A stretch of DNA of 64,000 nucleotides from Escherichia phage vB_EcoM_HZ_ZJUN4. The translations under genes were made by a program, and so were the position numbers. The stretch is taken from the sequence record PP216085; one strand, 5' to 3'. Below, in pieces: positions 17,071 through 61,089 of this stretch. Numbering within the stretch: position 1 is the stretch's first letter; the number at the start of each line of letters is the position of its first letter. The notes beneath the pieces are model-generated. The model was given only the letters and a program-made list of their open reading frames with translations, ran no database searches and was not told the origin of the DNA.

Positions 17071-18749
17071 AGAATTTTAAACTAAACCGAGTTAGGTATC
17101 AAAATATAATGTCAGTAGGTGGAAATCCTATTGACATTCAACTAGATAAGGTTCAAAAAACTCTTATTACTGGACGAAATGGCGGTGGTAAGTCTACTAT
17201 GTTAGAAGCCATCACATTTGGGCTTTTTGGCAAGCCATTCCGTGATGTAAAGAAAGGTCAATTAATAAACAGCACAAATAAGAAAGAACTTTTAGTTGAA
17301 CTGTGGATGGAATATGATGAGAAAAAGTACTATATCAAAAGAGGACAAAAACCAAACGTTTTCGAAATCACCGTTAACGGTACACGTCTTAATGAATCTG
17401 CCAGCAGTAAAGATTTCCAAGCAGAATTTGAACAGCTTATCGGAATGTCATATGCCAGTTTCAAGCAGATCGTCGTACTCGGCACGGCTGGATATACCCC
17501 TTTCATGGGCCTATCCACTCCTGCAAGAAGAAAACTCGTCGAAGACCTGCTCGAGGTAGGAACATTAGCTGAAATGGATAAGCTTAATAAAGCACTAATA
17601 CGTGAATTAAATTCACAAAACCAAGTGCTTGATGTTAAAAAAGATAGTATTATCCAACAAATTAAAATATATAATGATAACGTTGAACGCCAGAAAAAAT
17701 TAACCGGTGATAACCTTACTCGTCTGCAGAATATGTATGATGATTTGGCAAAAGAAGCTAGAACGTTAAAATCGGAAATAGAAGAAGCTAATGAAAGATT
17801 AGTTAATATTGTTTTGGATGAAGACCCGACTGATGCATTTAATAAAATCGGTCAAGAAGCATTTTTAATTAAATCAAAAATTGACTCGTATAATAAAGTC
17901 ATTAATATGTATCACGAAGGTGGATTATGTCCAACCTGTTTGTCACAATTAAGTTCCGGTGATAAAGTTGTTTCTAAAATTAAAGATAAAGTTTCTGAAT
18001 GCACGCATTCGTTTGAACAGCTTTCAACGCATCGTGATAATTTAAAAGTTCTTGTTGATGAATACCGAGATAATATTAAAACCCAGCAGACGTTGGCGAA
18101 TGATATTCGCAATAAAAAGCAATCCTTAATCACGACGGTAGATAAAGCTAAAAAGGTTAAAGCGGCTATAGAAAAAGCATCATCTGAGTTTATTGACCAT
18201 GCTGATGAAATAGCACTGCTTCAAGAAGAACTTGATAAAATTGTTAAGACAAAAACTAATTTGGTAATGGAAAAATACCACAGAGGAATTTTGACTGACA
18301 TGCTCAAAGATTCTGGTATTAAAGGTGCTATTATTAAAAAGTACATTCCATTATTTAATAAGCAGATTAACCATTATCTTAAAATAATGGAAGCGGATTA
18401 TGTGTTTACATTAGATGAAGAATTTAATGAGACAATTAAATCACGTGGTCGTGAAGATTTTAGTTATGCTTCATTTAGTGAAGGTGAAAAAGCACGAATC
18501 GATATTGCTCTTTTATTTACTTGGCGTGATATTGCTTCTATCGTATCTGGTGTTAGTATTAGTACATTAATTCTTGATGAAGTGTTTGATGGGTCATTTG
18601 ATGCCGAAGGTATTAAAGGCGTAGCTAATATTATAAATTCAATGAAAAATACTAATGTTTTTATAATTTCGCATAAAGACCATGACCCGCAAGAATATGG
18701 TCAGCATCTTCAAATGAAGAAAGTTGGTCGGTTTACTGTAATGGTTTAA
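17067..18749 (+). CDS. 46: recombination endonuclease subunit gp46 (Rad50/SbcC-like ATPase)
   Basis: 560 aa, GTG start after AAAAGGAA; Walker A GRNGGGKST; coiled-coil middle; CxxC zinc hook CPTC. Confidence 0.9.
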   Translation: MKNFKLNRVRYQNIMSVGGNPIDIQLDKVQKTLITGRNGGGKSTMLEAITFGLFGKPFRDVKKGQLINSTNKKELLVELWMEYDEKKYYIKRGQKPNVFEITVNGTRLNESASSKDFQAEFEQLIGMSYASFKQIVVLGTAGYTPFMGLSTPARRKLVEDLLEVGTLAEMDKLNKALIRELNSQNQVLDVKKDSIIQQIKIYNDNVERQKKLTGDNLTRLQNMYDDLAKEARTLKSEIEEANERLVNIVLDEDPTDAFNKIGQEAFLIKSKIDSYNKVINMYHEGGLCPTCLSQLSSGDKVVSKIKDKVSECTHSFEQLSTHRDNLKVLVDEYRDNIKTQQTLANDIRNKKQSLITTVDKAKKVKAAIEKASSEFIDHADEIALLQEELDKIVKTKTNLVMEKYHRGILTDMLKDSGIKGAIIKKYIPLFNKQINHYLKIMEADYVFTLDEEFNETIKSRGREDFSYASFSEGEKARIDIALLFTWRDIASIVSGVSISTLILDEVFDGSFDAEGIKGVANIINSMKNTNVFIISHKDHDPQEYGQHLQMKKVGRFTVMV

Positions 18750-32240: not shown

Positions 32241-32851
32241 TGCTTTATCAAATGCACAAGTGCAAAGACACGTACAAATATAAAGGTGCCCAGTGTTATA
32301 TCATTAATCGTGAAAACGCAGGTCCAGGTCATTCGCATCAATCGCGGTTTGTATTCGTTAAAAACAACGAAATTATAGCAGTTGCTAATTACATGCTTGC
32401 GACTAGTGATGTTAATCCGGTGCCTTTCACATATTATAATCTAATGGACTTGGCGTACGATTATAATTGGTTTAATCATGATACTTTGGCTCATATTGAA
32501 GGTGTAGGATTTGATATCTCTTATTCTAGTTACTCGTTGTGTCCTATGAGCCGAGCTCATAAAGAGCCTGAATATTTTTCATTTCGTCGGCGTGTAGACT
32601 TTAAACGCAGCACAGAGTATGTCGGTGGAATCTTTGTTAAAGATAATCGAATTACTCGCATTATTTATCCTTTGGGCTGTGGTCAAAAAGATATTGATGT
32701 TGATTTAGACTTTACTGAAAACATCATTAATCATATTGCTTCTGTGTATTTTGATATTGATCACAAAATTGTAATATGTGGATATGAATTACCATCAGAA
32801 AAACAGTCTATTGATGACCAAATTTTTAATGCTTTTATGAATAGAGGTTAA
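32240..32851 (+). CDS. hypothetical protein
   Basis: 203 aa; start overlaps sp stop. Confidence 0.55.
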   Translation: MLYQMHKCKDTYKYKGAQCYIINRENAGPGHSHQSRFVFVKNNEIIAVANYMLATSDVNPVPFTYYNLMDLAYDYNWFNHDTLAHIEGVGFDISYSSYSLCPMSRAHKEPEYFSFRRRVDFKRSTEYVGGIFVKDNRITRIIYPLGCGQKDIDVDLDFTENIINHIASVYFDIDHKIVICGYELPSEKQSIDDQIFNAFMNRG

Positions 32852-33020: not shown

Positions 33021-34049
33021 ATGTCATCAATACCTTGGATTGATAATGAGTTTGCATATCGTGCGCTAGCTCATTTACCTAAATTCACACAAGTAAATAA
33101 TAGTTCAACTTTTAAATTGCGGTTTAGATGCCCTGTTTGTGGAGATTCAAAAACCGACCAAAATAAAGCCCGTGGATGGTATTACGGCGATAATAATGAA
33201 GGAAATATTCATTGTTATAACTGTAACTATCATGCACCAATCGGAATATATTTAAAGGAGTTTGAACCTGATTTATATCGTGAGTATATCTTTGAAATAA
33301 GAAAAGAAAAAGGTAAAAGTCGTCTAGTAGAAAAACCTAAAGAACTTCCTAAACAACCCGAGAAGAAAATAATTAAATCTCTTCCGTCATGCATTAGATT
33401 AGATAAACTGGCGGAAGACCATCCAATTATAAAATACGTAAAAGCTCGCTGTATTCCAAAGGATAAATGGAAATATCTTTGGTTTACAACCGAATGGCCT
33501 AAATTAGTTAATAGTATAGCACCAGGAACATATAAAAAGGAAATACCTGAGCCTCGTCTTGTTATTCCAATTTATAATGCTAATGGAAAAGCTGAGTCTT
33601 TTCAAGGACGTGCATTAAAGAAAGATGCTCCTCAAAAATATATCACCATCAAAGCTTATCCTGAGGCAACAAAAATCTATGGAGTTGAACGAGTTAAAGA
33701 TGGTGATGTATATGTTCTAGAAGGACCTATAGATTCACTTTTTATTGAAAATGGTATAGCTATTACGGGTGGTCAATTAGACCTAGAAATTGTTCCATTT
33801 AAAGATAGACGTGTATGGGTTTTAGATAATGAACCTCGTCACCCTGACACTATTAAACGAATGACTAAATTAGTTGATGCAGGAGAAAGGGTTATGTTTT
33901 GGGATAAATCTCCCTGGAAATCAAAAGATGTTAATGATATGATTAGAAAGGAAGGTGCAACCCCTGAACAAATTATGGAATATATGAAAAATAATATTGC
34001 CCAAGGGTTGATGGCTAAAATGCGGCTATCTAAATATGCTAAGATTTAA
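33021..34049 (+). CDS. 61: DNA primase gp61
   Basis: 342 aa; zinc ribbon CPVCGDS...CYNC; TOPRIM acidic residues. Confidence 0.92.
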   Translation: MSSIPWIDNEFAYRALAHLPKFTQVNNSSTFKLRFRCPVCGDSKTDQNKARGWYYGDNNEGNIHCYNCNYHAPIGIYLKEFEPDLYREYIFEIRKEKGKSRLVEKPKELPKQPEKKIIKSLPSCIRLDKLAEDHPIIKYVKARCIPKDKWKYLWFTTEWPKLVNSIAPGTYKKEIPEPRLVIPIYNANGKAESFQGRALKKDAPQKYITIKAYPEATKIYGVERVKDGDVYVLEGPIDSLFIENGIAITGGQLDLEIVPFKDRRVWVLDNEPRHPDTIKRMTKLVDAGERVMFWDKSPWKSKDVNDMIRKEGATPEQIMEYMKNNIAQGLMAKMRLSKYAKI

Positions 34050-34246
34050 ATTAACCCAACCAAAGCAAATGCTAAATCTACGAATGTATCAAGAGTAATT
34101 ACTGGAATACTAACGCCATGAGCAATAGCAACTGGCGATAAAACAAAATTCCAAAGTAAAATTCCTATCATAGCAGAAATAGTAAAAGCTATACGTTTTT
34201 TATTACCTTTGATGGCATTAACAAGTGCCATTAATTTTTGTACCAT
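34046..34246 (-). CDS. small membrane protein, antisense to flanking early genes
   Basis: 66 aa hydrophobic; strong RBS AAAGGAGG 7 nt upstream of ATG on - strand; convergent with gene 61. Confidence 0.45.
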   Translation of the reverse strand: MVQKLMALVNAIKGNKKRIAFTISAMIGILLWNFVLSPVAIAHGVSIPVITLDTFVDLAFALVGLI

Positions 34247-34295
34247 GCGTCGTCCTCCTTTAAATTAAATATTTATCGCAAATTTTACAAAATTT

Positions 34296-34350: not shown

Positions 34351-35690
<1,340 letters not shown>

Positions 35691-48737: not shown

Positions 48738-49250
48738 TTCTTCTAGCGTTGATATGAAAAAATATAAATTGCAGAACAATGTTCGTCGTTCTATTAAATC
48801 CTCTTCAATGAACTATGCGAATGTCGCTATTATGACAGACGCAGATCACGATGGATAGCCTTCGGGCTATCTATAGAAATACCTCATAATTAAGAGATTA
48901 TTGGATTAGGTTCTATTTATCCTTCTCTGCTCGGATTTTTTAGTAATTGGCCAGAATTGTTTGAACAAGGAAGAATTCGCTTTGTCAAAACTCCTGTAAT
49001 CATCGCTCAGGTCGGTAAAAAACAAGAATGGTTTTATACAGTCGCTGAATATGAGAGTGCCAAAGATGCTCTACCTAAACATAGCATCCGTTATATTAAA
49101 GGACTTGGCTCTTTGGAAAAATCTGAATATCGTGAGATGATTCAAAACCCAGTATATGATGTTGTTAAACTTCCTGAGAACTGGAAAGAGCTTTTTGAAA
49201 TGCTCATGGGAGATAATGCTGACCTTCGTAAAGAATGGATGAGCCAGTAG
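48718..49250 (+). CDS. 60: DNA topoisomerase II small subunit gp60, translated by ribosomal bypass of a 50-nt gap (segment 1 48718..48855, segment 2 48906..49250)
   Basis: Segment 1 ends ...DADHDG at GGA then TAG; matching GGA lies 47 nt downstream and the continuing frame encodes LGSIYPSLLGFFSNWPELFEQGRIRF...; matches recalled T4 gp60. Confidence 0.9.
48853..48908 (+). other. gene 60 translational bypass (hop) element: take-off GGA, UAG stop, CCUUCGGG hairpin, landing GGA
   Basis: GGATAGCCTTCGGGCTATCTATAGAAATACCTCATAATTAAGAGATTATTGGATTA read directly. Confidence 0.9.
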
Positions 49251-49518: not shown

Positions 49519-51696
49519 ATGATTATCACCACTGAAAAAGAAACTATTCTTGGTAATGGTTCTAAATCAAAAGCATTTAGCATCACAGCATCTCCTAAAG
49601 TATTTAAAATTCTGTCATCTGATTTGTATACAAACAAGATTCGCGCAGTAGTACGTGAATTGATTACTAATATGATTGATGCCCATGCTCTTAATGGAAA
49701 TCCTGAAAAATTTATCATACAAGTTCCAGGACGATTAGACCCACGATTTGTTTGCCGAGATTTTGGTCCGGGTATGAGCGATTTTGATATTCAGGGTGAT
49801 GATAATTCTCCTGGGTTGTATAATTCATACTTTAGTTCATCTAAGGCTGAATCTAACGATTTCATTGGCGGATTTGGTTTAGGTTCTAAATCTCCGTTTA
49901 GTTATACTGATACATTTAGTATTACTTCATATCATAAAGGTGAAATTCGTGGTTATGTAGCTTACATGGATGGTGACGGTCCGCAGATTAAACCTACATT
50001 CGTAAAAGAAATGGGTCCAAATGATAAAACTGGTATTGAAATCGTAGTTCCAGTTGAAGAAAAAGACTTTAGAAACTTTGCTTATGAAGTTTCTTATATC
50101 ATGCGACCATTCAAAGATTTGGCTATTATTAATGGTCTTGACCGTGAAATTGATTATTTTCCGGATTTTGATGACTATTACGGCGTAAATCCAGAAAGAT
50201 ATTGGCCAGATCGTGGTGGATTGTATGCTATCTATGGCGGTATTGTTTATCCTATTGATGGTGTTATTAGAGACCGTAACTGGTTAAGCATCCGCAATGA
50301 AGTGAATTATATTAAGTTTCCAATGGGTTCACTTGATATTGCTCCATCGCGTGAGGCTCTTTCACTAGATGATCGTACTCGTAAAAATATTATTGAGCGT
50401 GTTAAAGAGCTCAGTGAGAAGGCATTTAATGAAGATGTAAAACGATTTAAAGAATCTACATCTCCTCGTCATACATACCGTGAATTGATGAAGATGGGGT
50501 ATTCTGCTCGAGATTATATGATTAGTAATTCAGTCAAATTCACGACTAAAAATCTGTCATATAAGAAGATGCAGAGCATGTTTGAACCTGACAGTAAGTT
50601 ATGCAATGCAGGGGTTGTGTATGAAGTAAATCTTGACCCTCGACTGAAACGCATTAAGCAAAGTCATGAAACTTCAGCCGTTGCATCAAGCTATCGTCTG
50701 TTTGGTATTAATACGACAAAAATTAATATTGTTATTGATAATACTAAAAATCGTGTTAATATTGTCCGTGGATTAGCACGCGCGTTAGATGATAGTGAAT
50801 TTAATAACACCTTAAATATTCATCACAATGAGCGGCTTCTGTTTATTAATCCGGAAGTAGAATCGCAGATTGATTTGCTTCCTGATATTATGGCAATGTT
50901 TGAAAGTGATGAAGTTAACATTCATTATTTATCAGAAATTGAAGCTTTAGTTAAAAGTTATATTCCAAAGGCAGTAAAAAGTACAGCTCCTCGTCCTAAA
51001 GCTGCTACTGCATTTAAGTTTGAAATTAAAGACGGGCGCTGGGAAAAAGAGGAATTGTTTACGCTCACATCAGAAGCAGATGAAATTACTGGTTATGTAG
51101 CATACATGCATCGTTCTGATATTTTCTCTATGGATGGTACTACATCGCTTTGTCATCCATCTACGAGTATTTTGACTCGTATGGCTAATCTTATTGGCAT
51201 TAATGAATTTTATGTTATTCGTCCGCTTTTGCAGAAAAAGGTAAAAGAACTTGGTCAATGCCAATGTATTTTTGAAACTTTGCGTGATTTATATGTAGAT
51301 GCTTTTGATGATGTAGATTATGATAAGTATGTAGGTTATTCAAGTTCAGCTAAACGATATATTGATAAAATTATCAAGTATCCTGAGTTAGATTTTATGA
51401 TGAAGTACTTCAGTGTAGATGAAGTTTCTGAAGAATATACACGACTCGCTAATATGGTTAGTTCATTACAGGGTGTATATTTCAACGGTGGAAAAGATAC
51501 CATCGGTCATGACATCTGGACAGTAACTAATCTTTTTGATGTATTATCAAATAATGCTTCAAAAAACAGTGATAAAATGGTTGCTGAGTTTACCAAGAAA
51601 TTCCGTATTGTTTCCGACTTCATCGGTTATCGCAACTCTTTAAGTGATGATGAAGTTTCCCAAATCGCTAAAACTATGAAGGCCCTTGCGGCCTAA
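49519..51696 (+). CDS. rIIA: rIIA protein
   Basis: 725 aa; N-terminal GHKL-like ATPase motifs ([25 protein letters not shown]); followed by rIIB. Confidence 0.9.
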
Positions 51697-58310: not shown

Positions 58311-58320
58311 GGAATAAATA

Positions 58321-61059: not shown

Positions 61060-61089
61060 AGACCCTCCTTTTAAGGGTATTTATTCAAA

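Follow-up and report, generated by a model that had tools for sequence, protein, structure and literature searches.

A conserved small gene opposite primase in T4-like phages, missing from the T4 annotation, very probably expressed late and predicted to encode a single-pass inner-membrane protein

The small gene described here belongs to a family that is already catalogued: PHROG 2024, to which no function has been assigned, and RB69ORF029w of phage RB69 represent the same family, in the same slot, flanked by gene 61 on one side and by gene 56 or dam on the other, and on the same opposite strand. RB69ORF029w was counted by Nolan et al. (2006; PMC1524935) as a novel ORF without a T4 orthologue. 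The early and middle transcripts of T4 all run counterclockwise, whereas late transcripts run in either direction, and among 50 late promoters 32 carry a perfect TATAAATA, nine have A at position -13 and most of the others show single deviations (Geiduschek and Kassavetis, PMC2988020); position -13 is poorly conserved in relatives of T4 (Nolan et al., PMC1524935). Envelope proteins described in T-even phages include the small Imm and Sp, products of early genes, and the late inner-membrane proteins holin T and antiholin RI, both with a periplasm-facing C-terminus. What is added here is the annotation gap in T4, the spread of the gene across T4-like genera and a conserved late-promoter element.

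We analysed a stretch of 64,000 nucleotides from Escherichia phage vB_EcoM_HZ_ZJUN4 (PP216085; the window), whose plus strand corresponds to the counterclockwise (early) strand of T4 and carries, in order, helicase 41, dmd, 61.4, sp, 61.2, 61.1, primase 61, dam, dCTPase 56 and soc; from 60.4 kb onwards, late genes (t, 38 and 37) occupy the minus strand. The gene order marks the phage as T4-like and as a Tequatrovirus. The locus is 98-99% identical to the nearest database genomes. A preliminary description of this DNA had picked out a 66-aa ORF on the minus strand, with a ribosome-binding site 7 nt before the ATG and a weak late-promoter-like motif upstream, convergent with primase and divergent from a nuclease-dam pair. 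The quoted residues were found at 34046-34246, the ribosome-binding site as AAAGGAGG at 34261-34254 and the motif as GATAAATA at 34277-34270, and the coordinates bear out the gene orientations:

33021-34049, plus strand: gene 61 (DNA primase), the conserved convergent neighbour of the small ORF
34046-34246, minus strand: the small ORF, 66 codons and a TAA stop, a PHROG 2024 member and the orthologue of RB69ORF029w
34209-34234, plus strand: terminator-like hairpin followed by a U-run (dG -13.2 kcal/mol, z -3.1)
34254-34261, minus strand: Shine-Dalgarno site AAAGGAGG, then a 7-nt spacer (ACGACGC) and the ATG at 34246-34244
34270-34277, minus strand: candidate gp55-type late promoter GATAAATA, a match to TATAAATA at 7 of 8 positions
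34351-34911, plus strand: 186-aa ORF, divergent from the small ORF
34911-35690, plus strand: dam, divergent from the small ORF

The stop codons of the small ORF and gene 61 overlap by 4 nt. The ORF had also been called the sole minus-strand gene in about 60 kb, and this held when the window was surveyed: before 60.4 kb the minus strand has eight ORFs, each at least 50 aa long and not largely overlain by plus-strand genes, and just one of these, the ORF at 34046-34246, has the combination of a Shine-Dalgarno site and a late-promoter-like motif, which is missing from the other seven.

The small ORF is a genuine protein-coding gene of T4-type phages, under purifying selection and conserved in its position and its promoter-like motif. 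Presence in related phages, one of the points on which the earlier claim hung, was established by tblastn, in which the 66-aa protein matched 692 phage records (identity below 60% in 189 of them) and a divergent subfamily of the protein was found in a further 130 records. The PHROG 2024 HMM matched ORF residues 2-66 over profile positions 1-65 of 65 (E 1.9e-30), and the same family was matched by 12 of 12 diverse representatives. A codon alignment of orthologues from T4, Mosigvirus (RB69, JK42), Gaprivervirus (VR26) and two uncultured lineages gave 0.61-0.83 synonymous differences per site, which is saturated, and 0.23-0.39 non-synonymous differences, with a dN/dS of 0.13-0.34 (0.13 and 0.16 for the two close pairs). 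Given these codon-level data, the substitution pattern fits a translated hydrophobic protein, not a conserved regulatory spacer. W32, N33 and P38 are invariant in 32 diverse sequences, in which G44, P48 and G64 are nearly so, members of the T4/RB69 subfamily share a strongly conserved AIKGNKK motif at the N-terminus, and a Shine-Dalgarno core (GGAG or GGAGG) is present upstream of the gene in all lineages examined.

If the frame were not a gene, and were simply open within intergenic DNA kept for the terminator of gene 61 and the promoters of dam and gene 56, this would agree with the empty 309-bp stretch in the T4 records AF158101, NC_000866 and MT984581, and with the early-strand terminator-like hairpin inside the ORF. 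Against this, frame, length (61-69 codons) and motifs survive across genera at 18-55% amino-acid identity, while nucleotide identity falls to 52-60%; the hairpin was seen only in Tequatrovirus sequences; and changes are rarest at codon position 2 and commonest at position 3, so that this explanation is effectively refuted. The hairpin, which is not evident by eye in RB69 or VR26, falls within codons 1-13 of the small ORF; it has no part in what the protein does and may end the 41-61 early transcript. In T4_ev240 (L028 ~490-510) and ECCR664 (L005 ~1495-1510) a -1 frameshift in an A-run of Lys codons truncates the ORF, reflecting either a homopolymer sequencing error or a gene that is dispensable in culture.

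The gene was found in the same slot in Tequatrovirus, Mosigvirus, Gaprivervirus, Dhakavirus, Marfavirus, Kanagawavirus, Karamvirus and two uncultured lineages, and in all of them it is encoded opposite to gene 61 and convergent with it, the two stop codons overlapping in most cases. The neighbour on its other side varies (dam, gene 56 or an unrelated ORF), and the adjacency to primase looks like packing rather than function. VR26 (Gaprivervirus) has two tandem divergent copies (L003 1495-1692 and 1701-1901), the second being of the type found in Dhakavirus (JS98), Marfavirus, Kanagawavirus (CIP9, PEi26) and Karamvirus (CkP1). The other genera retain one copy type or the other, which suggests an old duplication followed by differential loss. 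In RB49 (Krischvirus; L026 491-2052), only 15 bp separate genes 56 and 61, the opposite strand has no ORF there, and soc and sp were not found in the 15-kb stretch inspected. A profile search of 1.84 billion representative proteins returned six clusters, every one of the same family, and a search with a wider profile against 5.8 billion proteins returned 114 proteins, all on T4-like contigs and none credibly named; a scan of IMG/VR added seven more loci of the same kind.

The gene is kept in phages with or without dam and the 186-aa ORF. A functional linkage of the small gene to the nuclease-dam pair was therefore dropped, since the gene persists where both are absent, and we treat it as independent of that pair. 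The 186-aa ORF itself, which is present in approximately 145 of 503 matching phage records, weakly matched two profiles of type II restriction enzymes over their C-terminal half (PADLOC REase_II at 3.6e-5, and Pfam DpnII at E 0.002, which misses the cut-off). DpnII cuts GATC, the site methylated by Dam, and because of this shared site the 186-aa ORF and dam may be the relic of a captured restriction-modification cassette. T4 is without the 186-aa ORF (L002 3130-3215; NC_000866 ~17630-17715); approximately 40 nt of its 3' end are left, this remnant reads VLVLLSNTYDEE on the other strand, and just a few bases separate the deletion junction from the small gene's GATAAATA, which follows it.

The T4 copy of the small gene was located at NC_000866 17738-17938 (+), is 92-94% identical to the window copy and shares both GATAAATA and AAAGGAGG with it. 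In AF158101.6, NC_000866.4 and MT984581 this position is a 309-bp gap with no annotated gene, and it is because the T4 copy is unannotated that RB69ORF029w was scored as lacking a T4 counterpart. The exact T4 protein sequence has matches in the protein collection only from raw-read assemblies. The ORF is likewise intact and unannotated in the records of JS98 (L021 1301-1501) and PEi26 (L024 1286-1471), and hundreds of T-even genomes carry the gene annotated as a hypothetical protein. The literature was searched for T4 Ribo-seq, for unannotated T4 genes, for RB69ORF029w and for stIII, and no pertinent report turned up.

Judged from its promoter region and its direction, the small gene is very probably switched on late in infection. 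It runs clockwise within a block in which the early and middle transcripts are all counterclockwise, and for this reason it could only be late. Late promoters of T4, which depend on gp55, gp33 and gp45, consist of a TATAAATA-type element at -13 to -6 with A+T-rich DNA beyond it and do without a -35 element. The candidate promoter GATAAATA is directly followed by an A+T-rich TTTAATTTAAA, and transcription would start at approximately 34261-34266. Counted on both strands of the window, ATAAATA occurs at 8 sites against 40 +/- 6 in shuffled sequence, an approximately five-fold depletion, and half of these NATAAATA sites (4 of 8) lie 26-38 nt upstream of a Shine-Dalgarno site and ATG, namely those of soc, gene 49, holin t and the small ORF. 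The other four ATAAATA sites (minus strand 32662-32668, 48914-48920 and 50926-50932; plus strand 58314-58320) are not followed by a Shine-Dalgarno site and ATG and might represent late starts in antisense. Soc and gene 49, which are T4 late genes within the early region, resemble the small gene in having a minimal (T/A/G)ATAAATA among early genes and in its spacing to the Shine-Dalgarno site and ATG; they differ in that their elements have T or A at -13 where the small gene has G, and in that they point in the early direction. Because the small gene points the opposite way to these two, early or middle transcription would not be an option for it.

Across phages, ATAAATA lies 14-23 nt upstream of the small-gene ATG in 9 of 11 sequence contexts whose flanks are unrelated; in T4 and the dam-less phages the DNA immediately upstream has been replaced and the motif retained. 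The elements found were:

window type: GATAAATA
T4, with a deletion ending a few bases upstream: GATAAATA
dam-less Tequatrovirus: AATAAATA
RB69 / JK42: AATAAATA
VR26: CATAAATA
uncultured lineage L016: AATAAATA
JS98: AATAAATA
Marfa: TATAAATA, canonical
CIP9: TATAAATA, canonical
PEi26: CATAAATA
lineage L014: TATTAATA, without the ATAAATA heptamer
CkP1: ATTAAATA, without the ATAAATA heptamer

The element is imperfect relative to TATAAATA in 9 of the 11 contexts (L014 and CkP1 included), and the late-promoter model of Nolan et al. called no site upstream of RB69ORF029w (PMC1524935). A variant at -13 is also seen in a well-established late gene of this phage, since holin t is preceded here by AATAAATA (61078-61085, minus strand) and in T4 by the canonical TATAAATA. 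The stretch 34309-34282 was considered as a sigma-70-type promoter (score 9/12) and dropped, being unconserved in T4.

A late clockwise transcript at this position could in principle matter as RNA, either as an antisense to gene 61 that helps to shut off primase late in infection, or as the message of a type-I-toxin-like peptide that the convergent early transcript represses. On the minus strand, a search of 33500-34046, past the ORF, showed no terminator-like site, and the convergent overlap with gene 61 is kept in all lineages. Type I toxins are small, hydrophobic, toxic peptides controlled by an antisense RNA encoded in cis; the 66-aa protein is small and hydrophobic, and the convergent early transcript could overlap the small gene if transcription of gene 61 reads through. 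However, the strong constraint on amino acids with saturated synonymous sites shows that selection acts on the protein and not on RNA complementarity, and the Shine-Dalgarno site is conserved everywhere, so we consider a role of the RNA itself very unlikely.

Prediction places the product in the inner membrane as a single-pass protein with its N-terminus in and its C-terminus out. AlphaFold2, run on a 32-sequence alignment, gave helices at residues 2-12, 16-42 and 52-63 with a mean pLDDT of 80, and the membrane location proposed in the preliminary description agrees with the one hydrophobic helix (AlphaFold2 helix 16-42) and its positive-inside charge pattern. The protein can be divided as follows:

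34193-34246, minus strand: residues 1-18, basic (net charge +5), predicted helix 2-12, presumably cytoplasmic
34121-34192, minus strand: residues 19-42, the single predicted transmembrane helix
34049-34120, minus strand: residues 43-66, predicted periplasmic, with G44, P48, V50, an acidic residue at 53, a helix at 52-63 and G64

In nearly all members the net charge is +2 to +6 on the N-terminal side and 0 to -2 on the C-terminal side, and the predicted topology follows from this pattern. The transmembrane segment is marginally hydrophobic (simple Hessa sum approximately 0 to +2.5 kcal/mol); its N-terminal half is variable and its C-terminal half contains the invariant W32, N33 and P38 and a near-invariant A40. 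Conservation is therefore maximal in the outer half of the helix and at the periplasmic boundary (W-N-x4-P-x-A-x3-G), followed by P48, V50 and the acidic residue at 53, which with G44 make up a conserved motif of the periplasmic tail, G-x3-P-x-V-x2-(D/E). The C-terminal 24 residues are hydrophobic, with a net charge of -2 and no basic residue, and the short hydrophobic helix 52-63 ends in G64. The late membrane effector suggested at the outset is thus supported as to late timing (by orientation, the conserved NATAAATA and the depletion of the heptamer) and as to membrane location, whereas the specific roles named for it gained no support but were not excluded either.

The sequence at the boundary, P-x-A-x-(A/S/T), resembles a signal-peptidase site, which makes a cleaved 24-residue peptide a minority alternative. 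Residues 1-42 would then be a long Sec signal peptide, cut by signal peptidase I between AIA and HG, and an active hydrophobic or amphipathic peptide would be freed to the periplasm or the outer leaflet. The basic n-region, the hydrophobic core, small residues at positions -3 and -1 and a helix-breaking Pro at -5 occur family-wide, conservation is centred on the boundary and the tail with the N-terminal half of the helix variable, and the hydrophobicity resembles that of the N-terminal domain of T4 RI. The hydrophobic stretch of the small protein is, however, 20-24 residues long, whereas cleaved signal peptides typically have 7-15 core residues and long cores normally remain as anchors. The strong conservation of AIKGNKK in the T4/RB69 subfamily would also be unusual for a disposable n-region. 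For RB69ORF029w, SignalP 3.0 gave no signal peptide and TMHMM a membrane helix at 21-41 (supplement of PMC1524935). We judge cleavage improbable and retain the anchored single-pass protein as the preferred form.

A small, predicted late, predicted membrane protein could also be a holin, pinholin or antiholin-like timer of lysis, which would oligomerise late and depolarise the membrane, or bind holin T. Polar residues in the helix (the invariant Asn and, in the JS98/Klebsiella subfamily, a conserved Asp) would suit such a protein; one UniRef entry is named 'Holin', probably an automatic label, and two members gave a non-significant match to the holin-like YwcE (E 0.014). Class II holins or pinholins such as S21 68 of phage 21 (68 aa) are similar in size and have a moderately hydrophobic Gly/Ala/Ser-rich helix, but they cross the membrane with two full segments, end in a charged cytoplasmic C-terminus and are encoded next to the endolysin gene, and none of these traits is seen in the small protein. 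Of the canonical holin features, at least one transmembrane domain is present (predicted helix 16-42), while a hydrophilic, highly charged domain at the C-terminus is absent, as are a family match and linkage to endolysin or spanin genes; the protein also has no second full transmembrane segment, the neighbours are primase, dam or dCTPase, and the gene lies approximately 26 kb from t in the window. No Pfam, NCBIfam or PHROG holin family was matched, and the family profile picked up no other ORF of the window, with t, imm and sp among those it passed over. The lysis set of T4 is, moreover, genetically complete with t, e, rI, rIII and the pseT.2/pseT.3 spanins. A holin-like function is thus doubtful.

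Similarity searches gave no name to the protein. The 66-aa protein had no match in Pfam, NCBIfam or PADLOC or among the PHROG holin families, and a Pfam scan of 12 relatives gave just sub-threshold hydrophobic matches, to YwcE in the two members mentioned and to Borrelia P13. Foldseek returned family members only from BFVD and no match from the PDB, and the family profile run against the ORFs of the window matched no other protein. A match to NqrE in a sequence profile search of the PDB (E 0.018) was attributed to composition. Homology to the RI signal domain was also rejected: the common pentapeptide FVLSP is limited to Tequatrovirus members and is most likely due to chance. No family of holins, antiholins, exclusion proteins or toxins was matched.

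Sp is encoded approximately 2 kb from the small gene, but sp and imm are early genes on the other strand than the small gene, and the family profile does not match their products; the small gene lies on the strand that in T4 gives no early or middle transcripts. Late expression, inner-membrane location and a periplasm-facing C-terminus, as in holin T and antiholin RI, are what is proposed for the small protein, and RI starts with a similar weakly hydrophobic N-terminal domain with a Pro-containing, AxA-like end. The likeness is limited, as holin T has no sequence relationship to the small protein, the gene is unlinked to the lysis genes, and the periplasmic part is approximately 24 residues and not a folded domain.

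The reading we favour, at a probability of roughly 0.7, is that of a late clockwise gene with a strong Shine-Dalgarno site whose single-pass product acts by helix-helix association in the inner membrane. The late transcript would be translated from this site, and the 66-residue product would insert in the inner membrane with its basic N-terminal helix facing the cytoplasm, a moderately hydrophobic helix bearing in its outer half the invariant Trp-Asn pair and, five residues further, the Pro, and a tail of approximately 24 residues in the periplasm. Helix-helix association would be the likeliest mode of action because the polar patch inside the membrane is the most conserved part of the protein, and the partner late in infection could be another copy of itself or a phage or host membrane protein. 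An envelope-level late process might be modulated in this way, lysis timing, lysis inhibition or superinfection protection being offered as guesses only. We infer late transcription, membrane insertion and topology; the process acted on is a guess. That the small protein is the missing part of a classic T4 envelope phenomenon, as a partner of T, RI or RIII that sets lysis timing or relays the lysis-inhibition signal or as a late superinfection barrier, appears unlikely to us; if it were true, its short length of 66 codons and its absence from the list of T4 genes would explain how it went unnoticed through sixty years of T4 genetics.

Gene catalogues, transcript maps and genome-wide screens take T4 as their reference phage, and a conserved gene that is unannotated there escapes every study that works from its gene list, whether a proteomics search, a CRISPRi library or a comparative set of core genes. 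In practice the gain is concrete, though small, namely the addition of this gene to the T4 annotation. The small gene is the sole clockwise late-type gene within the long counterclockwise early block of the window, and its fixed slot beside primase in the seven T4-like genera examined points to a real function, probably at the membrane.
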